Assembly: GCA_963695345.1 (NCBI GenBank) | Contig: OY968769.1 | Location: forward strand, 800,001-864,000 | Reading direction: 5' to 3' | DNA: 64,000 bases | Source of the DNA: an uncultured Methanomassiliicoccales archaeon | GTDB lineage: Archaea; Thermoplasmatota; Thermoplasmata; Methanomassiliicoccales; UBA472 | Shown here: positions 28,739-45,786 of the stretch, one piece after another | Layout of the letters: each line of letters begins with the position of its first letter | How positions within the stretch are numbered: the stretch's first letter is position 1 | Notes under the pieces: generated by a model | What the model saw: only the letters and a program-made list of their open reading frames with translations | Databases searched by the model: none | Told to the model about the DNA's origin: nothing | Translations under genes and position numbers: made by a program

Positions 28739-29012
28739 TCCGCCGATATGGGAACAACTCTGACCCAAGCTTATTTAACCATTATGAACGAGATCCGATC
28801 CATCACTGTCTGCCAACGGAAGGACCGGACCGATCGCCCGAACCATCGATGAGCGCACAGTTGGTTCGTCCAAAGAAGCTATTTCACAGCATGACATGAT
28901 CCAGGCCACCCGCGAGGCCGGCCTTTTCGGATATGCCAGCATGTCCCACCGTATTTGAACGGCATTGACAAGGTTTATCAAGCGAAATGTCATTGGCGTG
29001 CCGGGTCCGAAA

Positions 29013-29946
29013 ATGAGGCTTTGGGAATTCGGAAGGATGAACAATTCGAGGGTCAAGATCGGCGAGAAATTAGGTGGTCCTTTGGGTCTCGTCGACGGAT
29101 GCCAGGTCTACACCACGATGTTCCGCTACGATTTCAACGGCAATACCGGATACGAGATCGTGCTCTCCACCTTTGGACCGGAGAACTATCGTCAGATCTG
29201 TGAGGCCACGTTCTATATGCTGGATGTTCCTGGATCGTGCGCTCAGGTCTCCAAGTTCCTCTCCGAGAGGAACATCGACATACTCAATTCTGTGTCGATC
29301 AGCATGATCTCCAACGTCACCATGGTGTGGAAGATGCTCGTCGACCTCAGCTACTACGGTGAACTGCCGCAGCTGCAGGAGGACTTCGACATGCTGAGGA
29401 AGCAGAAGTCCTCATCGATCTCCAACATCGATGCCATGGAGATCAAGGAGTCGCACATCAGCGACCGTTACACCAAAGGCACCTCCGGACAGGGCCAGAT
29501 GGTCAAGGCGAAGGCACTGAAGAAGGCAACCAAGGCTCCATCGATGATCATGAACGGCGAGATCGAGCTTCCCGCGGACTACCTGAAGATGCTCGAGGGC
29601 GTCAAGGACGACAGACCCGGTCATGATGGTCGGGGACACAGACGCCTGGGTGCTTTCGATCACGTTCATGAAGCCGACCGTCAAGCTGGCGCAGATCGAA
29701 ATCGAGATACCGGACAAACCGGGCTCGGTCTTCGAGGTCACCAACCAGCTGGCCAGTTTCGACATCAATCTCCTGGCGCTGCACACCAAGGTCCTGGTCT
29801 ACTATGAGAAGATGAGCATGGAACTGGTCGCCGACGTGAGCAAATATCCCGGAGGGATCGAGGCGCTCAAGGAAGGACTGAAGACCATGTTGTCCGGCCT
29901 GAAGGGCAACTACAGGCTCTCCGCCCTGAAGGAGATCAGGGTCTGA
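29013..29946 (+). CDS. Tandem ACT-domain protein; frameshift near 29617
   Basis: LDVPGSCAQVSKFLSERNIDIL and PDKPGSVFEVTNQLASFDINL ACT motifs. Confidence 0.75.
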
Positions 29947-29960
29947 GAAGTGGGCTCCCA

Positions 29961-30701
29961 ATGATCATCGGAAAAAAGATCATCGTCAAGGACGAGGTCC
30001 CATCGACCAATGACCTGGCGAAATCGCTGGCGAATGAAGGGGAAGAGGAAGGCCTGGTCGTCACGGCAAGGACCCAGGTTGCTGGCAGGGGCCGCATGGG
30101 ACGCACCTGGTCCTCGCCGGAGGGCGGTCTGTACATATCCGTCCTTCTCCGTCCGAAGGTCCCGGCTCACGACATGCTCAGGATGACCGTTCTGGCCTGC
30201 GTCCCGGTGGCGCAGACGATCGAGGAGGCTTCCGGTTGCAAGGCGACCGTCAAGTGGCCCAACGACGTCGAGATCGATGGAAAAAAGGTCGCCGGCCTGC
30301 TGGTAGAATCTGCCTCCAAGGGAGGGGAGATCGCCTACCTCGTTCTGGGCATCGGAATCAATCTGAACCTGCAGCCGGAATCGCTGGGCGTTCCGGAGGC
30401 CACATCGGTGAGCGCCTGCGCCGGAAGACCGATCGACCGGGAGGCGTTCCTGAACATCCTCCTCTATCGGCTCGACTCATTCTACGCCTCGTTCCTTAAG
30501 GGAACGTTCGAGATGGCCGATTACATCAAACGATCTTCCACGGTCGGTTCTGATATCGAGGTTGAGGTGAATGGCAGTAAGGTCATCGGAAGGGCGACCG
30601 GAGTGGACATCACCGGCGCTCTCGTTGTGATGACGCCCGAGGGCAGCGAACACCGGCTGTCATCGGTGCATGATACCACGATAAGGAAGACCAATCGGTA
30701 A
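29961..30701 (+). CDS. birA: Biotin-protein ligase (no HTH)
   Basis: STNDLA, QVAGRGRMGRTW.SP, KWPND, KKVAGLLVE, GIGIN. Confidence 0.95.
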   Translation: MIIGKKIIVKDEVPSTNDLAKSLANEGEEEGLVVTARTQVAGRGRMGRTWSSPEGGLYISVLLRPKVPAHDMLRMTVLACVPVAQTIEEASGCKATVKWPNDVEIDGKKVAGLLVESASKGGEIAYLVLGIGINLNLQPESLGVPEATSVSACAGRPIDREAFLNILLYRLDSFYASFLKGTFEMADYIKRSSTVGSDIEVEVNGSKVIGRATGVDITGALVVMTPEGSEHRLSSVHDTTIRKTNR

Positions 30702-30773
30702 GATTGGAATAATTTAGGCAAAAGGTGTTAACTGTGGGGCATCAATTCAAAGCATCGGACTGGAGGGTAAAAG

Positions 30774-32326
30774 ATGGGCGTCGAGGAAGCTAACAGGGAA
30801 TTGCGCGAGATGAAACGGAGGTCCCGCGCCGGAGGCGGCGCGGACAAGCAGGACAAGCATCACAAGCAGGGCAAGATGACCGCCAGGGAGCGGATAGATG
30901 CCCTGCTGGACCCCGGCTCGTTCGTCGAGTTCGATGCCTTCGTGACGCACCAGTCCTGTCACTTCGGCATGGACAAGCACAAGGTCCCGGGCGACGGCGT
31001 CGTCACCGGCCATGGCACCATCGACGGACGCCAGGTGTACGTCTTTGCCCAGGACTTCACCGTGTTCGCCGGTTCCGTCGGCAAGATGCACGCCCAGAAG
31101 ATCTGCAAGATGTACGATTTCGCGGTCAAGACCGGCGCCCCCATCATCGGCATCTACGATTCCGGCGGAGCGCGCATCCAGGAAGGGGCCGACTCGCTCT
31201 CCGGGTTCGGCGAGATATTCTTCCGGAACGCCCTGGCGTCCGGCGTGATACCGCAGATAGCCATGGTCATGGGGCCGTGCGCCGGGGGCGCCTCGTTCTC
31301 CCCCGCCATGAACGATTTCGTGTTCATGGTCAAGGGCAAATCGCACATGTTCGTGGTGGGGCCGGACGTCATCAAGGCGGTACAGAAGGAGGATGTCACG
31401 TTCGAGGAGCTGGGCGGGGCCATGACCCATGCCACCAAGAGCGGCACCGCCCACTTCGTGGCCGAGGACGACATGGACTGCATCAAGAAGGTCAAGAAGC
31501 TGGTCTCCTTCCTGCCATCCAACAACCTGGACACCGCCCCGCACGGCGTGGGGAAGGACGACCCGGAACGTCGGGAGGACTCCCTCGACACCATCGTGCC
31601 GGAGGACCCGACCAAAGGGCTACGACATGCGTGAGGTCATCAAGAAGGTGGCCGACGACGCCGAGTTCCTCGAGGTGCAGGAGCACTGGGCCAGGAACAT
31701 CGTGGTCGGCTTCGCCCACATGGACGGGATCAGCATCGGCATCGTCGCCAACGAACCCTCGGTCTACGCCGGCACGCTGGACAACAACTCGTCGATCAAA
31801 GCGGCCCGTTTCGTTCGGTTCTGCGATTCCTTCAACATCCCCATCGTCACCTTCGTGGACGTCCCTGGCTATCTGCCGTCGGCGGAGCAGGAATATGAAG
31901 GGCTGGTGCGCAACGCGGCCAAGCTGTTGTACGCCTACTGCGACGCCACCACGCCCGAAGGTGACGGTCATCACGCGCAAGGCCATCGGCGGGGCCTACT
32001 GCGTGATGTCGTCCAAGCACATCCGCACCGACATCAACCTGGCATGGCCTTCCGCCGAGATAGCCATCGTCGGACCGGAAGGAGCCATCAACATAGTCTA
32101 TAAACAGGAGCTCATAATGGCAGACGACCCACAGGTGAAGCGGGACGAGCTCATCTCCGAGTACCGTAAGGCCTACGCGTCACCGTATGTGGCCGCGGAA
32201 CGGGGATACCTCGACGACATCATCGAACCGAAGGAGACCCGGTCCAGATTGATCAGCGCCCTGCATATGTTGGAGAAGAAGAGAGAGTCGAGACCGACCA
32301 AGAAGCACGGCAACATTCCGCTATGA
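30774..32326 (+). CDS. Acyl-CoA carboxyltransferase (PccB/MmdA/transcarboxylase 12S-like); frameshifts near 31617 and 31955
   Basis: [52 protein letters not shown]. Confidence 0.92.
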
Positions 32327-32336
32327 GGCTGTCCAG

Positions 32337-33828
32337 ATGAAGATAAAGATAATGGACACGGTATTGCGGGACGCCCACCAGTCGCTATTGGCGACCAGGA
32401 TGCGGACCGAGGACATGCTGCCCATAGCCCCGCTCATGGACGAGATCGGTTACTGGTCCGTGGAGATGTGGGGAGGCGCCACCTTCGACTCCTGCCTCCG
32501 CTACCTGAAGGAGGACCCCTGGGAGCGCATCACCAAGCTCAAGAAGGCGATGCCGAACACCCGGTTCCAGATGCTTCTCCGCGGACAGAACATCGTCGGA
32601 TACCGTCATTATTCGGACGACATCGTGGAGAAGTTCGTGCAGAAGGCGCACGCAGCGCGGGATCGACGTCTTCCGCATCTTCGACGCGCTCAACGACGTC
32701 AGGAACATGCAGTCGGCCATGAGGGCGGTCGAAACGCTCCGGGGCGATCGTGGAGGCGGCCATTGCCTACACCACCTCGCCGGTCCACAGCATCGACACC
32801 TTCGTCCAGATGGCCAACCGGCTGAAGGAGCTGGGTGCGGATACCTTGTGCATCAAGGACATGGCCGGACTCCTGAAGCCGTATGTGGCCTATGACCTGG
32901 TCAAGCAGCTGAGGGAGGAGACCGCCCTGCCCGGTGCACATGCACTGCCACGCCACCTCCGGAATGTCCGAATCATCCTACGTAAAGGGGATCGAGGCCG
33001 GCGCCGAGATCATCGACACCGCCATCTCGTCCATGTCCCAGGGGACCGCCCAGCCGCCCACCGAATCGATGGTGGCCATGCTCCGCGGGACGGAGTACGA
33101 CACCGGACTGGACCTGAAGAAGCTGCAGGAGATATCCGATTACTTCGAAAAGGTGCGGGAAAAGTACTCCGATTTCGAGAGCGGACACACCGGTGTCGAT
33201 ACCAACGCCCTCATCTACCAGATACCGGGGGGGATGATCTCCAATCTGGCCTCTCAGCTGAAGGAGGCAAAGCAGGAGCACAAGATCCAGGAGATCTATG
33301 AGGAGGTGCCCCGGGTCAGGGCCGACCTCGGCTATCCCGCCGCTGGTGACGCCGACCTCGCAGATCGTCGGTACCCAGGCGACCCTCAACGTCATTTCCG
33401 GTGAGCGGTACAAGATGGTCACCAACGAGACCAAGAACCTGGTGCGCGGGCTGTACGGACGCACGCCGGCGGAGATCGACCCCGCCGTCCGCAGGAAGAT
33501 CATCGGGGACGAGAAACCCATCACCGTCCGCCCTGCCGACCTGCTCGAGCCCGAGTATGACCGGTTGGCGCTGGAGATCGGCTCCTTGGCCAGGAACGAG
33601 GAGGACGTCCTCTCCTACGCGCTCTTCCCCCGGGAGGCCATTGAGTACTTCAAGGACCGGGAGATGAACGAGAAGGGCGTGAACCTGAAGGACATCGCCG
33701 CCGTCGCCGTTCTGTACATGCGCTCCACCGAGAAGAAGCCCGCCAAGGACATCTGCAAGGGGAAGGAAGACCAGTGGAAGAACGTGGCCCGCCGCGAACA
33801 GATGAGGCAAGGGGGGTGGCTGATCTGA
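32337..33828 (+). CDS. Pyruvate/oxaloacetate carboxyltransferase (transcarboxylase 5S/OadA-like, no biotinyl domain); about 4 frameshifts
   Basis: [23 protein letters not shown] (carbamylated Lys), [22 protein letters not shown]. Confidence 0.9.
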
Positions 33829-34329
33829 AGCTCAAGATTACCGCCAACGGACATCCGCATGAGGTCAACGTGGAGAAGAACGGCGGCGACTACCGCGTCA
33901 CCATCGGCAATGAGAACTATCGGGTGGCCATCAAGGACAGCGGGGTATCCATCAACGGAGAGCTACTTCCAGATAAACGTGGAGGGGGCGCTCAACGAGG
34001 GCGCCACCGTGACCACCAGCTCGCGCCAGATGAAGGTGCTTGTGGAACCGGTCCGCGAGATGGCCATGGTCTCGGTGGAGGCCGAGGTGTCGCATGGCGG
34101 CAAGGGCTCCGATTCGAAGGGCTCGATCATGGCGCCGATGCCGGGCAAGATCATCTCCATCAAGGTGAAACCGGGAGACACCGTGGCCCAGAACCAGATC
34201 GTGGCCGTCCTGGAGGCGATGAAGATGGAGAACGAGATCCAGTCCGACGTCGCCGGCACCGTTCTCAGCGTTTCCGTCCGGCCGGGGGAGACGGTCGAGG
34301 GCGGCCAGGTCCTGCTGGTTGTCCAGTGA
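33825..34329 (+). CDS. Biotin carboxyl carrier protein; frameshift near 33962
   Basis: APMPGKI..VKPGD.V...LEAMKMENEI; N-terminus (M)KLKITANG begins at CTG 33825 (alternative GTG 33816). Confidence 0.88.
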
Positions 34330-35607
34330 TCAGAAGTCCGTTCCCTGGGCGAAGGCCGCGGTAGCCTCGGCCACCTTCTTGTCTCCGTAGATCGCCGCGG
34401 TCATGCTCTTGCGCACCAGCAACTGCTGGGCCAGCCGCATCACCTCGTCCTCGGTGACCTTTTCGTACTTCCTCACCTCATCGTCGATAATCGGCACATC
34501 GCCGGTGATCATGTAGTGGTAGGCGAACATGCGCATGTCGTCGCGCGGCTGGCCTATGTTCCTCAGGATGCTGCCCTTGAGGACATGCTTGGCGCGTTCC
34601 AGCTCGCCCGGTGCCAGCCCTTCGTTCTTGAGCCGCTTGAGCTCCTCCCCGAAGATGTGGATCACCCTCTGGACCCGGTCGGCGGAGGTGGAGAAGTACG
34701 ACTCTACGGTACCGGAGTCGGAGTAGGAGGACGGCGCCATGTAGATCGAGTAGACCAGGCCTTCCTCCTCCCTCACCTTCCGGTTGAGGCGTGAGCTCGC
34801 CCCGCCGCCGATGATCGCCGCCAGTACATCCTGTGCGTAGCTCGACGGGTCCTTTGCCGTCAGTCCCGGGAACGCCAATCCCACGTACATGTGGTCCCCC
34901 TTCCTGGGATACGCATCTATGGAGGCGTGGAACTTGGGTTTCTGCCTTTTCACCGGTCTGCCCTTCTCCAGACCGTCGAGCGAGTCGGTGGCCCATCGAA
35001 GGACCTGTTCCGGGTCTATGTTGCCGCAGGCCACCACCGCCATCCGGGGCGGGCGGTACTTGGTGGAATGGAATTCCAGCAGATCCTCGGAGGAGAACGA
35101 GTCCACGCTCTTGTCCGTGCCGAGCACCGGCCGGGACAGAGGTCCGCCCTTGAACAGGGAGCGCAGCAGAAGGTTCTTGATGTAGCGTTCCGGATCGTTC
35201 AGCCGGTTGTTGATCTCCTGTTTGACGACCCCTTTCTCCAGCTCCATGTAGTCCTTGTCCATCAGCGGGTTGCAGAAGATGTCCTGGACCAGGCCCTGGG
35301 CGGTTTCGACCGTCTCATCGATGGAGAAGGAGAAGAAAGAGGTCATCTCCTGGGTGGTGAAGGCGTTGAGATACCCGCCCGCCTCCTCGATCGTCTCATT
35401 GACCTGATTGAACGTGCGGTTCCTGGTGCCCTTGAACAGCATATGCTCGAGGAAGTGGGCCATTCCATGCTGCTTCGGCCCTTCGTCGCGGGAGCCGATG
35501 CCGACGCTGATCGAGACGGCGGCGGATCGAGTCTGGGGAAGACGTTCCGTGATGACCGGTATTCCGGCGGGCGTCTTGGTCACCGTTAGCAGCTGTTCGG
35601 TCCTCAT
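34330..35607 (-). CDS. M16-family zinc peptidase
   Basis: HFLEHMLFKGT (HxxEH), LNAFT, SSRL...REEEGLVY. Confidence 0.93.
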   Translation of the reverse strand: MRTEQLLTVTKTPAGIPVITERLPQTRSAAVSISVGIGSRDEGPKQHGMAHFLEHMLFKGTRNRTFNQVNETIEEAGGYLNAFTTQEMTSFFSFSIDETVETAQGLVQDIFCNPLMDKDYMELEKGVVKQEINNRLNDPERYIKNLLLRSLFKGGPLSRPVLGTDKSVDSFSSEDLLEFHSTKYRPPRMAVVACGNIDPEQVLRWATDSLDGLEKGRPVKRQKPKFHASIDAYPRKGDHMYVGLAFPGLTAKDPSSYAQDVLAAIIGGGASSRLNRKVREEEGLVYSIYMAPSSYSDSGTVESYFSTSADRVQRVIHIFGEELKRLKNEGLAPGELERAKHVLKGSILRNIGQPRDDMRMFAYHYMITGDVPIIDDEVRKYEKVTEDEVMRLAQQLLVRKSMTAAIYGDKKVAEATAAFAQGTDF

Positions 35608-35853
35608 GTGCCATAGATGGCCTGACCGGATTAAAAAGGATGCCGTTTCGGATCGGGAATCCGACGTCCCAAACCGCAGGCCACGTGGGGTCTGACATTA
35701 ACCCGCTCGATCGGTGTTCGACGGATGTTGCCAGTACAAATAATATATTGTTTTATTAATATTATTAGTGAATATCTTAAGGATGCTTATTAAACCCAAT
35801 AAGCGGGTCAATCATTGATTGCGGTCGAGGCCACGGCCTTAGGGGGCATTGAA

Positions 35854-37335
35854 TTGAACGTGCTGAAGAACCTCAGTGTCGCCATCGTTGCGACGATGAT
35901 GATCCTTGTTTGTATATTGACAGTGTTACCTGACCAGGCACAGGCCGTGCCAGTGTCTGGCTGGAGCCCGGCCATACCGTTGAACGGTAATCGGTCCAGT
36001 GCCGCATCGGTCCAGGTGGGCGACACGGTATACATAATGGGCGGATTTAACACCACCTCGGTGGATATGACCAACTATGTTTTCACCTATGACCTTATGA
36101 CTGGGGCGAGTGTCCGGAAAGCGAATCTCCCGTACAAGACGGCCATCGCGGCCGCCGCTACCGATGGTAAAGAGATCTTTGTTGTCGGGAGCCTCAACAT
36201 CTCGGTCTCCCACTATATGGATACCCTTCAGATCTATAACATCAGCACGAACGTATGGACCGTCGGGCCACACATTCCAGTGGGGAGCGCCGGGGCTTGC
36301 GCGGCCGTCATTGGCAATAATCTCTATGTCGTGGGCGGATTCAACGCCACCGCTCCCTACGGTCTGAACGCCACCCAGATCTTTAACATTCATGATCGGA
36401 CCTGGAGCAATGGTTCATCTTTGCCGTTCGGCAGGTTCTGCGGCAGCTTGGTGGCCTACCATGGGTCCCTCTATCATATGGGGGGCATGGATGGTGCATC
36501 TGCCCGGACCAACTGCTACAAATGGGACCTGACCGGGTCCTGGTACTCGATCGCATCGATGCCGGAGGCGAGGGGCTTCAATAGCCTGGTGATAGGAACT
36601 GACGGATTGTTCTATACCGCAGGCGGATCGAGCCTCAATTCATTCGGCAGTGCCTGGAACAACTCATTCATCTATGACCCGACCGACAATGTCTGGAGCA
36701 GAGGTCCGAACCTGACCCAGGCTTGTACGTTGTCGGCCATGGGGGCATCGAGCAACGGTAATATCTTCCTCCTGGGAGGACGGAACTCAGCCGTCACCAA
36801 CTCGCGCGTCAGCTACATTGCCACGATGCCTTCCGCCCAATCGCAGGTGGATTCGCTGAATTCCCAGATATTGGCATTGCAGGGGAAACTGCAGGACATT
36901 GGCGCGAACATCTCGGACATCCAGGACAAGATGGACGATCAGGGGACTCAGATCGGGACGGCCCAAACGGCTCTCGGCAGCCTTCAGGTGCAGCTATCCG
37001 GTCTAAGGGCTCAGCTGAACGCAACCCAGGGCTCGATCACTGAACTCTCCACCGGCTACGAACAGCAGATGGGAGGATTGAGCTCCGAGCAGACCGCATC
37101 TGCCACACAACTGACCCAAATGCAGACCCAGATAGCGACCCTCATGGATGACCTCAACTCGACCCAGTCGCGGTTGACCCAGACCAGCAACGAAGTGGCC
37201 GGGGTCCAGAGCAGCGTGGATGGGCGGGCGGACGGGACCATGGGCCTCATAATCATGGTGCTTGCCATTGTGATGATGGTAATGGCAGCGTTCCTTATCG
37301 TTCTTGTAGCCAGGAAGAAAAAGGGGGTCCAGTAG
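35854..37335 (+). CDS. Surface protein: signal peptide, Kelch beta-propeller, coiled-coil stalk, C-terminal TM anchor
   Basis: YIMGG/YVVGG/YHMGG/YTAGG..W Kelch repeats; Q/S/T-rich heptads; TM + RKKK; start uncertain (35815-35860). Confidence 0.85.
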   Translation: MNVLKNLSVAIVATMMILVCILTVLPDQAQAVPVSGWSPAIPLNGNRSSAASVQVGDTVYIMGGFNTTSVDMTNYVFTYDLMTGASVRKANLPYKTAIAAAATDGKEIFVVGSLNISVSHYMDTLQIYNISTNVWTVGPHIPVGSAGACAAVIGNNLYVVGGFNATAPYGLNATQIFNIHDRTWSNGSSLPFGRFCGSLVAYHGSLYHMGGMDGASARTNCYKWDLTGSWYSIASMPEARGFNSLVIGTDGLFYTAGGSSLNSFGSAWNNSFIYDPTDNVWSRGPNLTQACTLSAMGASSNGNIFLLGGRNSAVTNSRVSYIATMPSAQSQVDSLNSQILALQGKLQDIGANISDIQDKMDDQGTQIGTAQTALGSLQVQLSGLRAQLNATQGSITELSTGYEQQMGGLSSEQTASATQLTQMQTQIATLMDDLNSTQSRLTQTSNEVAGVQSSVDGRADGTMGLIIMVLAIVMMVMAAFLIVLVARKKKGVQ

Positions 37336-37336
37336 G

Positions 37337-39118
37337 ATGATGCGAATGAAGAGGAAGGACAGCATCACGGCGATCATGATCGTGATGATGTTGACAATGG
37401 GCGCTTTGGTCATTGTTCCCGATACCGTGTCCGCGGTCAGCGGACCCGCTTGGACAACGATGCCTGCACTGCCAGTGAACCGTACCGAGTCGGCCTATGC
37501 CCAGGTGGGCAACACACTGTACATCATGGGCGGAGGGGTCAGCCCGCTGAGCAAGGATAACTTAGCTTACAGCTACAACATGACGAACGGTCTGACGACC
37601 GCACTGGCCACGATGCCGGTCGCGGATAGGGGATCCGCTGCCGCCGCCACCAATGACGGAAGGATATTCGTCTTCGGAGGAACTGTCGGCAGCGCAAAGA
37701 CCCAGATATACTACATATCGAACAACACTTGGATCATGGGGCCGGATATGCCGCATGGGGTCTGGCAGGGAAAAGCGGCCTACATGGTCAGTGACAACAG
37801 GATATACGTGGCCGGGGGAGAAGTGGCCGATCCAGCAAACTACCTGCAGATCCTCAACCTGGCCACAATGGTCTGGTCCGCCGGGACCCCATTACCAGTC
37901 GGTGTCGGGCAGGGCAATCTGGTCTCGTTCAACACCCAACTGCTGTACTTCGGTGGATATAACCAGACCAGTCATGCGACCAATGAGACCCTGTCCTATT
38001 CTGGAGGGACTTGGACAAAAGTGAAGCCGATGCCGGCCCCGCTGACCTACGCCGCCGCGGTTCGCGCGATCGATGATCAGATATATGTCATCGGAGGAAG
38101 TGACCAGTACATGCTGGCACAGAATTCCCTAGCTGGCGTATATGCCTATGAGCCGAGGTCCAAGACCTGGACCACCGTGGCAAGTCTGCCGGTACCGAGG
38201 GAGAACCCGGTCGCTGGCATCACATCGTACGGGACCATCGTCTGTGCCGGCGGATCGAACCTCAGCCAATCGATGAATACCGTGCTGTCTCTCCGCATCG
38301 CATCGATGTCAGTGACGACGGTGCTGTCATCCACTGTCAAGACCGGCGGACCGATTTCGGTCACGTTCACGGCAAGCATGACCTACCGCCCCCTGGCGTT
38401 TGTGGAGGGCGAGGTCTATCTGAAGGATGTTATGGGCGTATCATTCGATCTCGGATCGGCGTCCGCATCCTCCGGCCAGCAGATGACGACCTTCGACGTG
38501 CCTCAGTACGCCGCTCTGGGTTCGGCCAGGCTGAACGTGCCGGGGCTGACCGCGCACGACGCCAGGGGATACACCTGGACCTTGCCATCATTGACCTCGG
38601 CCGCTTTCACCATCGCCCCTGGACAACCGACACAGGACCAGATAGACATTCTGGCCACGAGGGTCATCGAACTCCAAGCGCAGTTGCTGGAACAGAACGC
38701 TTCACTGGCCGTCATGTCGGCGAACTCCACCTCTCAGGCATCCCAGGTGTATGTCCTGCAAGGTTCGATAGAGGCTGCCCAGGAGAACGTGGACCTCTTG
38801 AACGCCCAGCTGCTGACCGCACAGGCGCAGCTGGCATCGCTGCAGGCCCAGACCAATTCCTCGATCGGATCCGCCTCGGACTGGCAAAATCAGAGCCAAT
38901 CACAGTTGACCGCCCTGCAGGCGCAGATCGACCTGCTGAACGCCCAGGTGAATGAGAGCCAACAGCAACTGGGTCAGATCAGGACCGACGCCGGATCGGT
39001 GCAGGCCTCTGCCGACCGGAAGATGGACTCGACCACCGGCATGCTGGCGGTGGTCCTGATGATAGCGGCGATCGCCGGATTGGCACTGGCCATGGTCCTG
39101 GTGATGCGCAGGAAGTGA
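37337..39118 (+). CDS. Second surface Kelch protein with a beta-rich spacer, coiled-coil stalk and C-terminal TM anchor
   Basis: Six GG..W Kelch repeats; LQAQ heptads; TM + RRK. Confidence 0.87.
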   Translation: MMRMKRKDSITAIMIVMMLTMGALVIVPDTVSAVSGPAWTTMPALPVNRTESAYAQVGNTLYIMGGGVSPLSKDNLAYSYNMTNGLTTALATMPVADRGSAAAATNDGRIFVFGGTVGSAKTQIYYISNNTWIMGPDMPHGVWQGKAAYMVSDNRIYVAGGEVADPANYLQILNLATMVWSAGTPLPVGVGQGNLVSFNTQLLYFGGYNQTSHATNETLSYSGGTWTKVKPMPAPLTYAAAVRAIDDQIYVIGGSDQYMLAQNSLAGVYAYEPRSKTWTTVASLPVPRENPVAGITSYGTIVCAGGSNLSQSMNTVLSLRIASMSVTTVLSSTVKTGGPISVTFTASMTYRPLAFVEGEVYLKDVMGVSFDLGSASASSGQQMTTFDVPQYAALGSARLNVPGLTAHDARGYTWTLPSLTSAAFTIAPGQPTQDQIDILATRVIELQAQLLEQNASLAVMSANSTSQASQVYVLQGSIEAAQENVDLLNAQLLTAQAQLASLQAQTNSSIGSASDWQNQSQSQLTALQAQIDLLNAQVNESQQQLGQIRTDAGSVQASADRKMDSTTGMLAVVLMIAAIAGLALAMVLVMRRK

Positions 39119-39396: not shown

Positions 39397-41373
39397 ATGG
39401 CGACCAAGGGCAAAGGCAATCCGGAACGTACCTGCGACGCCGGGGCAAAGGACTGCATAGAGACAGCGGCCGCCAAGAAGATCGAGACCGCCTGGGACCG
39501 GTTCGAGCTGATGCAGCCGCAATGCGGCTTCGGAGAGCTCGGGGTGTGCTGCAACATTTGCCTTCAGGGCCCCTGCCGGATCAATCCATACGGGGGAAAG
39601 CCGGAGAAGGGCATCTGCGGCGCCCGGGACTATACGATCGTGGCCAGGAACCTCATCCGCCATATCGCGGGCGGCACCGCCTCACATTCGGGCCATGGCC
39701 GCCACATCGCCGACACGCTGCGGAAGGTGGTGGACGGGAACGCGCCGGCATATTCCATCAAGGACGAGAAGAAACTGAGGCGGGTCTCGGAACGGCTGGG
39801 GATCGATTGCCAGGGAAGGTCCAAGGAGGAACTGGCGAGGGCCGTCCTGATCAAGGTCTTCGACGACTATGGACGGAGCGAGAGTCTGCCCCTGAATTTC
39901 ACCACGGCCACTATCACCAAGCACCGCGCCGATCTTCTGGAATCGCTCGGGGTCATGCCTGACTCGATCGACCGTTCCATCGCCGACGTCATGCACCGCA
40001 CCTCGCTGGGCTGCGATGCCGATCCATTGCCCTTGCTCTTTGGCGGCATCCGGTGCGCCATCGCCGATTACAACGGAATGCAGATATCCACCGACCTGTC
40101 GGACATACTGTTCGGCACGCCCAGACTGGTCCGTACCTATGCCAACCTGGGTGCCCTCAAGGAGGATGCGGTCAACATCGCCATCCATGGTCACAACCCG
40201 GTGCTCAGCGAGGTCATCGTGGACGTCGCCCGGAAGATGGACGAGGAGGCCCGGCAGGCGGGCGCTTCGGGCATCAACATCGTCGGCATCTGCTGCACCG
40301 GGACCGAGGCGCTGATGCGGAAGGGGGTCTCCCTGGCCTCGAACTTCGCATCCCAGGAACTGGCGCTCGCCACCGGGGCGGTCGACCTGCTGGTGGCGGA
40401 TTACCAGTGCATAATGCCTTCGCTCTCGGAGATCTGCTCCTGCATGCACACCGAGATGGTGACCACGATGAGCAATGTCCGGATCCCCTATGACACCCAC
40501 GTCCAGTTCCGGGAGGAGGACGCCGAGGAGTCAGCGCGGTCGATCATCCGGATGGCCATCAAGTCCTTCCAACGGCGGGAACCGGCCAAGGTCAAGATCC
40601 CGAACGTCAGCTACGACGTGGTGGCCGGGTTCAGCACCGAGCAGATCGAGGAGCTGTGCGCACCGTTCGTACCGGAGGACCCGCTGATCCACATCGTCGA
40701 GGCCATCAGGTCCGGGCAGATACGGGGGATCGCGCTGCTGGCAGGCTGCAACAACCAGAAGGCGGTGCAGGACAGGAACCATCTGACCATCGCCAAGGAA
40801 ATGATCAAGCATGACGTCCTGGTGCTGACCACCGGATGTTCCGCCGGGGCCTGCGCCAAGAACGACCTTCTTTCCGCCGAGGCCACGGAGAGGTTCGCCG
40901 GACCCGGACTGAAGACGTTCATCCGGTCCCTCGAAGAGCGGAACGGGGTCAAGCTCCCGCCGATATGGCACATGGGTTCCTGCGTCGACAACTCCCGGGC
41001 CGCGAACCTGGCCAAGGAGATCGCGGTCCGACTGGGAACGGACGTCTCGGAGATACCGTTCGTCGTCTCGGCGCCCGAGGCGAATCACGAGAAGGCCGTG
41101 TCCATCGGCACCTGGTGCGTCGCCCTGGGCATGCCGGTCCACGTGGGCACCATCAGCTATGTTCACGGTTCGTCACTGGTCACCGAGGTGCTGGAGCACT
41201 CCGCCAGGGATGTCTTCGGCGGACATTTCATATTCGAGGCGGACCCGCACAAGGCATCGCACCGGCTGCTCAACACCATCGAACGCCGGCGCTGGATGCT
41301 GTCGTTCGAGAACCATTACGTGGTCGAGGACTCGAAGAAGCTCTCCAATCCAGGCTGTTCCGCATGGCCATAG
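39397..41373 (+). CDS. cooS: Bacterial-type [NiFe] CO dehydrogenase catalytic domain (probably fused to AcsB)
   Basis: D/B-cluster QCGFG..GVCCNIC.QGPC and GICG; C-cluster HGHNP, ICCTG, QCIMP, AGCNN, TGCSA, GSCVDNSR, EKA. Confidence 0.95.
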   Translation: MATKGKGNPERTCDAGAKDCIETAAAKKIETAWDRFELMQPQCGFGELGVCCNICLQGPCRINPYGGKPEKGICGARDYTIVARNLIRHIAGGTASHSGHGRHIADTLRKVVDGNAPAYSIKDEKKLRRVSERLGIDCQGRSKEELARAVLIKVFDDYGRSESLPLNFTTATITKHRADLLESLGVMPDSIDRSIADVMHRTSLGCDADPLPLLFGGIRCAIADYNGMQISTDLSDILFGTPRLVRTYANLGALKEDAVNIAIHGHNPVLSEVIVDVARKMDEEARQAGASGINIVGICCTGTEALMRKGVSLASNFASQELALATGAVDLLVADYQCIMPSLSEICSCMHTEMVTTMSNVRIPYDTHVQFREEDAEESARSIIRMAIKSFQRREPAKVKIPNVSYDVVAGFSTEQIEELCAPFVPEDPLIHIVEAIRSGQIRGIALLAGCNNQKAVQDRNHLTIAKEMIKHDVLVLTTGCSAGACAKNDLLSAEATERFAGPGLKTFIRSLEERNGVKLPPIWHMGSCVDNSRAANLAKEIAVRLGTDVSEIPFVVSAPEANHEKAVSIGTWCVALGMPVHVGTISYVHGSSLVTEVLEHSARDVFGGHFIFEADPHKASHRLLNTIERRRWMLSFENHYVVEDSKKLSNPGCSAWP

Positions 41374-43470
41374 ACGGCGCGCTCATCGCCACCGGCTTCG
41401 CCGACCAGCTGTTGGGGGTGGCGATCGAGAAGCATGGCTACGACAAGAAGATCGAGTACCCGGAGACCGCCTACGAACTGCCGTCCATATACGCCTGGGA
41501 CGGTTCCGAGGCGAAGAAACTGGGAGACCTGCCCGGCATCCTGGGCAAGGCGCGCGGCAAGATCCGGGAGACCTCGGACCTGGAGAGCGCCCTGGTCGCC
41601 GGCGAGGCCACCATGATCGCGGCCGAGATCATCGAGTCCCTGAAGTACCTGGACGATGCCAAGCCCTACGAGGGCACCATGTACACCGGTTTCGTCCCGG
41701 ACCGCATACTGCGGCAGCTGGGACTGGCCCTCGTCGACGACACCATCCCGGGAGCGGCGGTGCTGGTCGGCACGGCCAAGGACCCGAAGCAGCTGGTCAA
41801 GACCGTCAGGGCGTGCCAGAGCAAGGGCATGCTGATCTTCGCCTCCTATGATACCGTCAGACAGCTCAGGGACAACGGCATCCACATGGGATTGGACATG
41901 ATGCTCTACCCGGTCGGGGAGTTCACCCAGGTCATTCATGCCCTCAACTTCGCGATCCGCGCCGCCCTCTCCTTCGGCGGGGTGCAGAGAGGCGACCGGG
42001 AACGACTGGCCGGCTACATGAAGAAGCGGCCCAAGGTGTTCGTCCTGCAGTTCGGTCCGCTGGACGCGATCAAGGCCTCGGCCGAGTTCGCGGTGCTGCT
42101 GAACGGTTCCCCGGTGGTGGCCGACCAGATCCTGGAAGGCATACCGGACCGTTTCGTTACCCAAGCCCCGGAAAGCATGCTGCAGACGGCCATCGAACTG
42201 AGGGAAATCAAGGTGAAGGCGGCGGCCGGTGGACGTGCCGGTCGCCTACGGCGCGGCGTTCGAGGGCGAGACGGTCCGCCGACCGGACACCTACGTGGAG
42301 GCGGGCGGCGCCTCGAAGACACCCACCTTCGAGCTGCTCAGGATGAGGGAAGAAGCGGACGTCGAGGACGGCAAGATCACGGTCATCGGGAAGGACGTGG
42401 ACCAGATGGCCGACGGATCGTCGACCCCGCTGGCGATCGTCATCGACGTGTACGGCAAGAAGATGCAGGAGGACTTCGAATCGGTGATGGAACGGCGTAT
42501 CCACCTGTTCCTTAACTTCGCCGAGGGCGTCTGGCACACCGGGCAGAGGAATCTGAACTGGCTCCGCCTGAGCAAGAACGCCGTGGCCGCGGGCTTCCGC
42601 TTCAAGCATTTCGGCGACATACTCATCACCAAGATGAAGGAGGAGTTCGGCAACATCATCAGCCGGGTCCAGGTGACCATAATCACCGATGAGGAGGAGA
42701 TCAAGCGCCAGCTGCCGTCGGCCATGGAGGTGTACGCCAAGCGGGATGCCCGGATGGCCGGCCTGACCGATGAGGCGGTGGACACGTTCTATTCGTGCCT
42801 CATGTGCCAGTCGTTCGCCCCGGACCATATCTGCATCGTCACCCCGGAAAGACTGGGCCTGTGCGGGGCGATCAACTATCTGGACGCGAAGACGGGGAAG
42901 GAGATATCCCCCACCGGCCCGAACCAGCCGATATCCAAGGGCGAGACGGTGGACGCCGTCAAAGGCCAGTGGACGGGCGTCAACCAGGCGGTGTACGATC
43001 TCACGCACCATAAGCTGGAAAGGTTCAACGCCTACACCCTGATGGAGGACCCGATGACCTCGTGCGGCTGCTTCGAGTGCATCGTGGCCATGACGGCGGA
43101 CGTCCAAGCGGTCATCGTGGTCAACCGGGAGTTCCCGGGCATGACCCCGGTGGGGATGAAGTTCTCCACTCTGGCCGGTTCCATCGGCGGGGGCAAGCAG
43201 ACCCCGGGTTTCATCGGGGTGGGCAGGAAATACCTTATCAGCAAGAAATTCATCCCAGCGGACGGCGGTTTCCTCCGCATCGCGTGGATGCCCAAGGATC
43301 TGAAGGAGGCGATGCGCGGATCGCTGGAGAAGAGGGCGGCGGAACTGGGCGAACCGGGTTTCGTGGACAAGATCGCCGACGAGACGGTCACCACGGAAGC
43401 GGACGGACTGACGGAGTGGATGGCCAAGGTGGACCACCCGGCCCTGAGGATGCCGCCGCTGCTGCAATAA
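41349..43470 (+). CDS. acsB: Bacterial-type acetyl-CoA synthase with N-terminal domain; frameshift near 42225
   Basis: SRLFR..DGALIAT, YPETAYELP, DTIPG, YSCLMCQSFAP.HIC..PERLGLCGA, PMTSCGCFE (all A-cluster Cys present). Confidence 0.93.
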
Positions 43471-43490
43471 TGTTTCAGGAAGGTCATGAC

Positions 43491-44451
43491 ATGGTCGAGG
43501 TTCCAATCCCCAAGGAGAAGTGGACGGGCAAGATCGGCGTACTTGAGCTTGGCGCTTCGGCGGAGAAGGGCGGCTCCCGGGGGAAAAAGGTCCTGGTCGG
43601 GCGGCGAGCACCGGCATGCCCTTCCTTTCGTACGAAGGCACTTCGCCGAACCGGCAGATCATCGCCGGGGAGGTCATGGACACCACTCGACGAACTGCCC
43701 TCGGCGGTGGCGGAGTTCTTCGGGGACGCCGTCAAGGACCCGGCGCAGTGGGCGAAGGCCTGGGTGGAGAAGTACCACGCCGACGTCATCTGCCTGAAGC
43801 TGCTGTCGACCAACCCGGAAGAGGCGAACGTATCCCCCGAGGCGGCCGCCGAGACGGTGATGAAGGTACTGGCCGCGGTCGATGTCCCGCTGATCGTCTA
43901 TGGCTGCGGACAGGAAGAGAAGGACGCCAAGACCTTGGAAGCGGTCAGCAACATCGCGCCGAAGGAAAGGCTGCTGCTCGGCTACGCCGAGGAGGGGCAC
44001 TACAAGTCCATCTCCGCGGCGTCGATGGCCAACGACCACCCGCTCATCGCGTTCTCCAACCTGGACATCAACCTGGCAAAGCAGATCACCATCCTGCTCA
44101 CCGATTTCGGGGTGAAGAAGGACAACATCGCCATGGACCCGCTGATGGCCGGCCTGGGCATGGGGCTTGACTATTCCTATTCGGTCAACGAGCGCATCCG
44201 GCTGGCCGCCCTCATGGGAGACGGCATGCTGCAGCAGCCGATGCTGTGCGACTCCACCGCTTCGTGGAAGTCGGCCGAGGCGACCGACGAGATCGTAGGG
44301 TACGGCGACGCCGAAGGAGAGGGGTGTCTGGTGGGAGGCGACCACCGCCATAGCCGCCCTGGTCTCCGGAGCGGACATACTGGTCATGCGGCATCCAGGA
44401 GCGGCCGAGCTCGTGCGGGAAGCGCTGGACGATCTCAGGGGAGGGAACTGA
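43491..44451 (+). CDS. acsD: Corrinoid Fe-S protein small subunit; about 3 frameshifts
   Basis: PKEKWTGKI, PFLSYEG, LDINLAKQ, MDP..LG.GLDYSYSV.ERIRLAAL.GD.MLQ.P, GADILVMRHP. Confidence 0.9.
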
Positions 44452-45786
44452 ATGCCGACCGCCATCGAGATCTTCAAGCATCTGCCGAAGAAGAACTGCG
44501 GGGAGTGCAAGCACCCCACCTGCCTGGCGTTCGCCATGCAGCTCGCCAACCAGAAGGCCAAGCTGGAGGATTGCCCCTATGTCTCGGACGCCGGCAAGCA
44601 GTCGCTGGCGGCCTCCTCGGCCCCGCCGATCAGGTTGGTCAAGGTCGGGCACCGGCAAGGCCGACCCTGGAGATGGGCGACGAGACCGAGCTGTACCGCC
44701 ATGACAAGAAGTTCTTCCATCCGGTGCGCTACGCGATGACGGTCTCGGACACACTGACCGAGGCCGAGGCGATATCCAAGGTCCAGAAGGCCAATGCCAT
44801 GCGGTTCGAGCGGGTCGGACAGATCATGGCCCTGGACATGGTATGCGTCAGGAACGATTCCAAGGACGCGGGCAAGTTCGTGGCGATGGTCGACAAGGTG
44901 ATGTCGTCCACGGAACTGCCCACTGATCCTCTCCAGCGATGATCCGGTGGCGATCAGGGCGGCGGCTGCTGAGGATCTCGGCCAAGGTCCCGCTGCTCTC
45001 CGCGGCGACCACGGACGAACTTCGCCGAGATGGCCGCACTGGCCAAGGAGTTCAAGTGCCCTCTGGTGGTCAGGGAATCGAACCTCAACGACCTGGCCGA
45101 CCTGGTGGCAAAGGTCAAGCTGGCAGGCGTCGAGGACATCGTTCTGGACTTCGCTGCCGGGCAACCTCAAGGACCTGATCGAGAAGAGCACCATCATCCG
45201 CAAGCTCTCGGTCAAGAAGACGTTCCGCGGGCTCGGATATCCCTATGCTGGTGAACGCCCCGGACGGCAACCGCGGCATCACCATGGGACTGGTCTCCAC
45301 CATGAAGTACGGGTCGATCGTGGTGTTCGAGGACCTGCCGCCAGCAGATGGCCATACCTCTGTTCGTGCTCCGGCAGAACATCTATACCGACCCGCAGGT
45401 GCCGATCCAGGTCAAGCCCGGATCTGTACCCGATCGGCAATCCGACGGAGAACTCGCCGATCCTGTTCACGACCAACTTCTCGCTCACCTACTTCACCGT
45501 GCTGGGAGACATCGACAAGAGCAAGGTCCCGGTGTGGCTGCAGGTCGTCGACTGCGAGGGGCTCAGCGTGCTCACCGCGTTCGCCGCCGGGAAGCTGACC
45601 TCTGAAGGAGTCGTCCATGATCTGGACAAGTCCGGGGCTAGGACCAAGTCGAAGAAGAACGTCCTGATCATACCGGGCATGGTGGCTCGGATGGCGCCGA
45701 AGCTCGCCGAGCTCACCGGCATGAAGATCGTGGTCGGACCGAAGGAATCGTCCGGCCTGCCGAAGATGCTCAAGTCGCTCGAGTGA
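44452..45786 (+). CDS. acsC: Corrinoid Fe-S protein large subunit; multiple frameshifts
   Basis: LPKKNCGECKHPTCLAFA..CPY [4Fe-4S] motif, ETELYRH.K.F, RQNIYTDPQ.P, TTNFSLTYF, GLSVLTAFAAGK, VGPKESS. Confidence 0.9.

Follow-up and report, generated by a model that had tools for sequence, protein, structure and literature searches.

What do two carboxyltransferases (CTs) of different classes and a single biotin carrier accomplish together when no biotin carboxylase (BC) is encoded beside them? The question is raised by an operon of an uncultured Methanomassiliicoccales archaeon that lies within a 64,000-nucleotide stretch of its genome (G000:C1:800001-864000, hereafter the window, whose positions are used below unless a genome coordinate is given). 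The genome, G000, consists of one contig of 2.56 Mb with a completeness of 85%. On the plus strand, the listing of open reading frames (ORFs) and Pfam matches bear out the gene order that had been proposed from the letters alone: an ACT-domain protein, the biotin-protein ligase BirA, an acyl-CoA CT (Carboxyl_trans), a keto-acid CT (HMGL-like and PYC_OADA; called 5S-like below) and a biotin carrier (BCCP, for biotin carboxyl carrier protein; Biotin_lipoyl), followed by a convergent peptidase gene (Table 1). The motifs RDAHQS, IKDMAG, HMHCH and EAMKME are present in the translations of these genes, and Pfam scans found neither an ATP-grasp gene nor an OAD_beta gene within the operon.

The sequence-only reading equated this composition with the 12S, 5S and 1.3S subunits of the Propionibacterium transcarboxylase, and concluded that carboxyl groups are moved between (methyl)malonyl-CoA and pyruvate/oxaloacetate without ATP. 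The protein types were correctly named, but the ATP-free conclusion fails for this genome, since a BC is present in all 19 searched genomes of its family, here called f1. We consider it reasonably probable that the operon instead encodes the CT and carrier parts of two ATP-dependent enzymes, a pyruvate carboxylase and an acyl-CoA carboxylase, which would share one BC and one carrier.

One biotin carboxylase, one carrier and two carboxyltransferases

Exactly one match to Biotin_carb_C (PF02785) is found in G000, at genome positions 307091-307411. It belongs to a stand-alone BC with an intact frame of 462 aa (G000:C1:306089-307477), which lies 494 kb from the operon. Its neighbours are unrelated genes of the opposite strand, and it matches AccC/PycA-type models over its full length. 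The earlier statement that BC is missing therefore holds for the operon but not for the genome. Biotin_lipoyl has three matches in the genome, namely the operon carrier, the lipoyl domain of a 2-oxoacid dehydrogenase E2 subunit, and GcvH. Because the latter two are E2 and GcvH, the operon carrier is the genome's only biotin carrier and the only possible substrate protein for this BC. Likewise, the sole Carboxyl_trans and the sole PYC_OADA genes of G000 are those of the operon. A genome search for accC or pycA had been named beforehand as the test of ATP-free transfer; it returned this BC, with the operon carrier as its only possible partner, and so went against the proposal.

If these parts work together, BC would carboxylate the biotin of the operon carrier with ATP and bicarbonate. 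The PycB-type CT would then hand the carboxyl group to pyruvate, yielding the anaplerotic oxaloacetate of the cell, so that this half would be a pyruvate carboxylase in which PycB is divided between two genes, for CT and for carrier, and PycA has been relocated. The PccB-type CT would hand the carboxyl group to a short acyl-CoA and thereby complete an archaeal three-subunit acyl-CoA carboxylase. A complex prediction for BC with the N-terminal domain of the carrier, run without controls, gave a score of 0.00, which speaks neither for nor against binding.

The distribution of these genes was surveyed in 31 genomes of the order: G000, 18 more members of f1, and 12 genomes from six other families. 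The acyl-CoA CT and BC occur in the same 19 genomes, all of f1, and neither is found in the other 12. An archaeal-type phosphoenolpyruvate (PEP) carboxylase is found in 10 of those 12 and in none of the 19 f1 genomes, and its bacterial-type counterpart in none of the five f1 genomes searched for it. This pattern is consistent with an exchange in which a biotin-dependent way of making oxaloacetate took the place of PEP carboxylase. MM_CoA_mutase has no match in any of the 31 genomes, and the best match to methylmalonyl-CoA epimerase in G000 reaches 44 bits against a cut-off of 114.95, so that the proposed link to methylmalonyl-CoA and propionate is not upheld. OAD_beta has no match in G000 or in any of the 31 genomes, and control genomes were positive; the earlier remark that no OadB/MmdB-type subunit accompanies the operon was thus correct. 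A transcarboxylase alone needs a carboxyl donor, and neither a source of methylmalonyl-CoA nor a PEP carboxylase was found in these searches. Net carboxylation must therefore come from the ATP-dependent BC.

Among related loci the operon is stable. The order ACT-BirA-CT-5S is seen in 19 of 22 loci of the Methanomassiliicoccales type, the other three being cut by contig ends, and the carrier and a convergent M16 gene follow in nearly every related locus that reaches that far. In the window, the gaps along the five genes measure 14, 72, 10, and 0 or fewer bases. Order and spacing thus agree with the tight, co-directional arrangement first described, but that description missed the frame breaks by which four of the genes are split in this assembly. 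Intact orthologues from G007, a closed genome of the same genus that is 99% complete, were used as stand-ins for family and structure searches.

These searches place the 5S-like protein nearest to pyruvate carboxylase. It scores 775.6 bits against NF006761, 'pyruvate carboxylase subunit B' (cut-off 402), over model positions 3-450 of 591, and the carrier matches positions 463-590 of the same model as well as NF004173. As the two proteins match successive parts of NF006761, they look like a split PycB. Scores fall below the cut-off for both the transcarboxylase 5S equivalog NF008984 (616.6 against 827 bits) and the OadA model TIGR01108 (736 against 756.5 bits). Among solved structures the best relative is 5ks8_C, the beta chain of a two-subunit pyruvate carboxylase (576 bits), followed by OadA (2nx9, 534 bits) and transcarboxylase 5S (1rqb, 514 bits). 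The protein is also 60% identical to a Methanolobus gene that is followed by BC and birA. For the acyl-CoA CT, which scores 788.7 bits against TIGR01117 (cut-off 998.8), the best structure is 1vrg, a propionyl-CoA carboxylase beta chain (673 bits), with transcarboxylase 12S (1on3) at 605 bits. It covers positions 1-493 of Carboxyl_trans (PF01039) over three pieces and can be aligned over its entire length with propionyl-CoA carboxylase beta chains of solved structure. Hence neither 12S nor 5S is the best-scoring relative of its counterpart in the operon.

The two-subunit pyruvate carboxylase PycA/PycB, with the Methylobacillus flagellatus enzyme (5ks8) as solved example, is thus like this system in its PycB-type CT and in having a BC subunit encoded in the genome. 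One report notes that PycB and a separate BC subunit can be encoded apart and that birA is frequently found beside pyc genes (PMC11237513). Unlike in PycA/PycB, the carrier is not fused to the C-terminus of PycB (in G007 the CT of 495 aa and the carrier of at most 184 aa are separate), the carrier has a full eight-strand beta domain, and an acyl-CoA CT sits inside the operon. The BC is also shorter, at 462 aa, than the archaeal PycA of about 500 aa described in PMC5059739. Multi-subunit acyl-CoA carboxylases encoded in BirA-CT-BC-BCCP operons, and the propionyl-CoA carboxylases (PCCs) 1vrg, 3n6r and 6ybp, provide a second comparison. A PccB/AccD-type CT, a BC and a BCCP are all present here as well, and the carrier model resembles the BT and BCCP parts of the alpha subunits of PCC and methylcrotonyl-CoA carboxylase. 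The differences are that BC is unlinked in this archaeon and that a CT of the pyruvate class shares the carrier. BirA-CT-BC-BCCP operons occur in three other families of the class, and their CTs are 56-61% identical to those of f1 and their carriers 28-33%, N-terminal domain included.

The carrier deserves a closer description. Its structural model (pLDDT 80.5) comprises an eight-strand N-terminal beta domain, a disordered linker and a biotinyl domain. With Foldseek, the best matches are the BT and BCCP parts of PCC alpha (6ybq_K, E 3.9e-12, 171 columns), and methylcrotonyl-CoA and pyruvate carboxylases rank behind; a phmmer search against the PDB finds the biotinyl domain only, so the N-terminal domain is recognised by its fold alone. 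Beta sheets of the linker between CT and BCCP wrap around a terminal helix of BC in the two-subunit pyruvate carboxylase of bacteria (PMC5059739). Two segments of the f1 proteins could by analogy supply helices to fill the beta domain of the carrier. One is a tail of some 20 aa that follows the BC domain and is conserved across genera (HPP.ELLKQESF..FEG; L014, L015-L018); it is neither the Ala-rich helix nor the archaeal PycA form of about 500 aa (PMC5059739). The other is the segment LAAVAVLYM, conserved and rich in Ala, with which the 5S-like protein ends (L011:12775-12984).

Among short acyl-CoAs the substrate would probably be acetyl-CoA, since the Asp favouring propionyl-CoA has given way to Cys and no mutase is present; in both respects the operon differs from propionyl-CoA carboxylase. 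The role of this Asp comes from mutants of other enzymes, in which it is ScPccB D422 and TfAcCCB D427 (PMC7835884). All 25 f1-type loci that match a strict pattern have Cys at this position (GGAYC); a looser pattern adds one further f1 locus, L040 (GGGYCVM), and neither pattern picks up L036 or L038. The corresponding position is Asp (GGAYDVM) in families f14 and f28, discussed below. The exchange of Asp for Cys fits a change of substrate in a family that has no mutase, as a correlation only.

Frame breaks across the operon

Apart from birA, every gene of the operon is split across frames in G000. An alignment of G007 to G000 by blastn (85.5% identical over 6,671 columns, positions 28957-35602) locates eight uncompensated single-base insertions in a span of 4.4 kb (sites in Table 1), and every other indel in coding sequence is offset within a few bases. 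In G007 the five genes are intact, with 319, 246, 516, 495 and up to 184 aa. The Pfam pieces in G000 abut exactly; for example, positions 1-256, 254-369 and 368-493 of Carboxyl_trans are found in three frames. When all eight bases are skipped, the frames read through 310, 516, 495 and 167 aa with zero internal stops, and are identical to G007 at 282 of 319 residues for the ACT protein, 498 of 516 for the acyl-CoA CT, 459 of 495 for the 5S-like protein and 146 of 167 for the carrier.

Such breaks are common throughout this assembly. We compared 21 stretches of G007 with G000 (20 spaced every 125 kb, plus the operon region), which hold 315 non-overlapping ORFs of at least 150 aa; 201 with a best tblastn hit in G000 of 70% identity or more were kept and 114 were dropped. 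At least one frame change is present in 48 of these 201 genes, with 70 changes in 212,319 aligned bases. Most are of the +1 type (61 of 70, the other nine being -1), as are all eight in the operon. The changes are clustered: 8 fall in the 9,858 aligned bases of the operon stretch, and other stretches have 6 in 5,958, 9 in 13,281 and 6 in 9,771. Moreover, contigs from the sediment metagenome run X1 that are 95-99% alike are one base short at 29612, 31614, 31957, 32652, 33334 and 33966, matching six of the eight insertion sites. X1 is perhaps the source sample or holds a sister strain, and is hence not a fully independent witness; runs X2-X4 contain small shares only and gave no indel rows.

On the strength of the genome-wide +1 pattern, the X1 contigs that lack the bases, and the full-length frames obtained after skipping them, we conclude that the eight breaks are insertion errors of the assembly and not gene decay. 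It is very improbable that this strain carries true frameshifts and that its operon genes are pseudogenes. Eight breaks in 4.4 kb do put the operon among the denser of the sampled regions, but about a quarter of the sampled genes, the 48 noted above, are broken in the same way and mostly in the same direction, and completeness is only 85% despite a single contig. The repaired genes carry no stops, deletions or excess amino-acid change, and six of the eight extra bases are absent from the X1 contigs. Programmed frameshifting was also considered and rejected, as the eight sites have no common motif and the same breaks occur genome-wide. Split operon genes are seen in some other assemblies too (L031, L032, L037, L050). 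As false +1 frameshifts occur about once in every 3 kb of coding sequence, broken genes in G000 should not be read as pseudogenes.

Alternative readings and the wider class

A different picture emerges in the class to which the order belongs. We examined 151 genomes, G000 and 150 others; 148 have a completeness of 90% or more and a contamination of 5% or less. Across the class, 59 genomes have a PYC_OADA match and 69 a Carboxyl_trans match (E up to 1e-20), while BC is found in 45, OAD_beta in 23 and the mutase in 93. In f1, all four genomes in this set have the CT, the 5S-type protein and BC, and none has OAD_beta or the mutase. Family f14, whose tallies include one unpublished genome (G105), has the CT in 22 of 22, the 5S-type protein in 21, BC in 1, OAD_beta in none and the mutase in all 22; both f28 genomes have the CT, the 5S-type protein and the mutase, and neither has BC or OAD_beta. 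All three f17 genomes have the CT, the 5S-type protein and OAD_beta, none has BC, and two have the mutase. The CT-5S-BCCP order recurs in loci of f14 (L103, L105), where birA lies upstream, and of f28 (L104), and their CT and 5S-like proteins are 49-62% identical to the f1 counterparts. Since BC and OAD_beta are absent or nearly so, the mutase is present, and Asp occupies the propionyl-specific position, the operons of f14 and f28 are stronger candidates than that of the window for an archaeal methylmalonyl-CoA:pyruvate transcarboxylase in the true sense.

That the window operon itself is a true ATP-independent transcarboxylase, with the distant BC irrelevant or serving only for priming, seems quite unlikely. 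The three protein types do lie in one operon as in the Propionibacterium complex (12S, 1on3; 5S, 1rqb; 1.3S, 1dcz), homologous CT-5S-BCCP operons exist in f14 and f28 where BC and OAD_beta are rare or missing, and one carrier for both CTs makes the exchange chemically possible. Unlike in Propionibacterium, however, a BC is encoded in the genome, and it is intact, is conserved in every f1 genome searched, and has no other carrier to serve. The mutase and epimerase context is also not found here, leaving nothing to supply or remove methylmalonyl-CoA, whereas f14 and f28 do have the mutase. There is, in addition, no PEP carboxylase to provide oxaloacetate independently, and the 5S-like protein stays below the NF008984 cut-off. 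ATP-free transcarboxylation may nevertheless be a side or second activity of the shared-carrier carboxylases.

A further arrangement, which we regard as doubtful, is a hybrid machine in which a transcarboxylase-type module, made up of a 12S-like core, a 5S-like CT and one BT-BCCP carrier, has recruited a free-standing BC, with a single carrier visiting three active sites. Oxaloacetate and malonyl-CoA would then be made from one ATP-charged pool of carboxybiotin, and CO2 could perhaps also be exchanged between the two without ATP, beside the genes of acetyl-CoA synthase, and the loss of PEP carboxylase, the loss of the methylmalonyl pathway and the change from Asp to Cys would mark the shift from a BC-less form still kept in f14 and f28. 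Unlikely, in turn, is the view that the operon encodes a pyruvate carboxylase only, in which the acyl-CoA CT either has a structural or regulatory part in the complex, as the 12S hexamer does, or acts on an unknown substrate, and supplies no malonyl- or methylmalonyl-CoA to metabolism. This view would account for the failure to find a mutase or a family-specific consumer of malonyl-CoA, and the complementary occurrence of PEP carboxylase explains the pyruvate branch alone. However, the acyl-CoA CT is strongly conserved (those 498 of 516 residues shared with G007, against about 85% DNA identity of the aligned region), and it matches the full family profile and aligns along its whole length with solved propionyl-CoA carboxylase beta chains. 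That the operon encodes a Na+-translocating decarboxylase of oxaloacetate or methylmalonyl-CoA is scarcely credible. Like OadABG and MmdABCD, the operon combines alpha-type CTs with a biotin carrier, and these CTs resemble MmdA and OadA, the latter nearly to the TIGR01108 cut-off. Unlike in those systems, a beta subunit is missing from all 31 related genomes, in a search whose controls were positive; within the class, the Na+-pump beta subunit is present in families f17 and f19.

Several observations weigh against two carboxylases sharing BC and carrier. The use of the acyl-CoA CT is unexplained, as no family-specific consumer of malonyl-CoA or methylmalonyl-CoA was found. Malonyl-CoA consumers were sought only through PF08541 and PF00109, which gave weak matches in nearly all families and none specific to f1; the weak matches are the size of 3-hydroxy-3-methylglutaryl-CoA (HMG-CoA) synthase and thiolase genes. 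The CT-5S-BCCP order in families without BC shows that the module can work without one. The pairing of BC with the operon carrier is inferred by exclusion, BC being unlinked to the operon, and BC is 42-46% identical to relatives of the PycA and AccC types alike, so that an attempt to type it by identity to linked relatives was uninformative. Because the genomes are kin, the phyletic pattern represents one evolutionary event and not a statistic. The equivalence of the Cys position of f1 to ScPccB D422 is in part presumed, and that to Asp407 in 6ybp comes from an alignment count. Finally, X1 has no indel row at 32731 or 32933, so that the read comparison covers six of the eight sites.

Setting of the operon and its meaning

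Table 1. Genes of the carboxyltransferase operon and its surroundings, in window positions.
Feature	Positions	Strand	Evidence and remarks
ACT-domain protein, first operon gene	29013..29946	+	Pfam ACT on both pieces; break at 29613 (extra A)
BirA, biotin-protein ligase, 246 aa, intact	29961..30701	+	PF03099 2.2e-24
Acyl-CoA CT, PccB/MmdA/12S type, 516 aa read through	30774..32326	+	breaks at 31614 (extra A) and 31957 (extra G)
Pyruvate/oxaloacetate CT (PycB CT domain, 5S, OadA type), 495 aa read through	32337..33828	+	HMGL-like, PYC_OADA; breaks at 32655, 32731 and 32933 (extra G each) and 33336 (extra C)
Biotin carboxyl carrier with N-terminal eight-strand beta domain	33774..34329	+	Biotin_lipoyl 6e-20, EAMKME; break at 33973 (extra A); start uncertain, GTG at 33774 or later
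M16 peptidase, 425 aa, intact, convergent; closes operon	34330..35607	-	Peptidase_M16, M16_C
CODH/ACS genes CdhA, CdhC, CdhD (context, outside operon)	39397..45786	+	Prismane, CODH_A_N, CdhC, ACS_CODH_B_C, CdhD

The ACT protein, which possibly contains a second, weak ACT domain, has an intact orthologue of 319 aa in G007, and no characterised relative was found when one was looked for. Our guess is that it is a regulatory, metabolite-sensing subunit of the carboxylase. The BirA orthologue in G007 scores 177.8 bits against TIGR00121 (cut-off 83.1), and birA is the sole operon gene that lies in one open frame in G000, differing from G007 by compensated indels only.

Downstream, genes for carbon monoxide dehydrogenase/acetyl-CoA synthase (CODH/ACS) are present close to the operon, as had been pointed out from the sequence. 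In five other genomes of the same genus, no more than a few hundred bases separate the M16 gene from the start of cdhA. Proximity to CODH/ACS is thus a conserved trait of the genus and agrees with a link to the use of acetyl-CoA. In the window these genes lie in overlapping frames (39397-41373 with 40836-42515; 43062-44942, then 44947-45786) and are probably broken by the same kind of error as the operon. Two Kelch-repeat genes (506 and 593 aa; 35815-39118) stand between the M16 peptidase and the cdh genes, and in G007, too, M16 is followed by Kelch-repeat genes. Elsewhere in the genome (G000:C1:57837-61055, L024), the 2-oxoacid dehydrogenase genes encode an E2 that has catalytic, lipoyl and E3-binding domains and an E1 whose alpha and beta parts share one frame; these genes occur in a member of a methanogen order.

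No characterised enzyme is known to us in which one BC and one carrier serve two classes of CT, within a limited literature search; that search, which was not a full survey, also found no paper on this operon. If the shared-carrier reading is true, one BC and one carrier serve two CTs of different classes in this archaeon. This would raise the question of what use an acyl-CoA carboxylase has in an archaeon without a fatty-acid synthase or a methylmalonyl-CoA mutase. The comparison across the class also points to f14 and f28 as places in which to seek a real archaeal transcarboxylase. For f1 itself, two carboxylases sharing one ATP-charged carrier would explain how oxaloacetate is supplied in a methanogen-related family that lacks PEP carboxylase.

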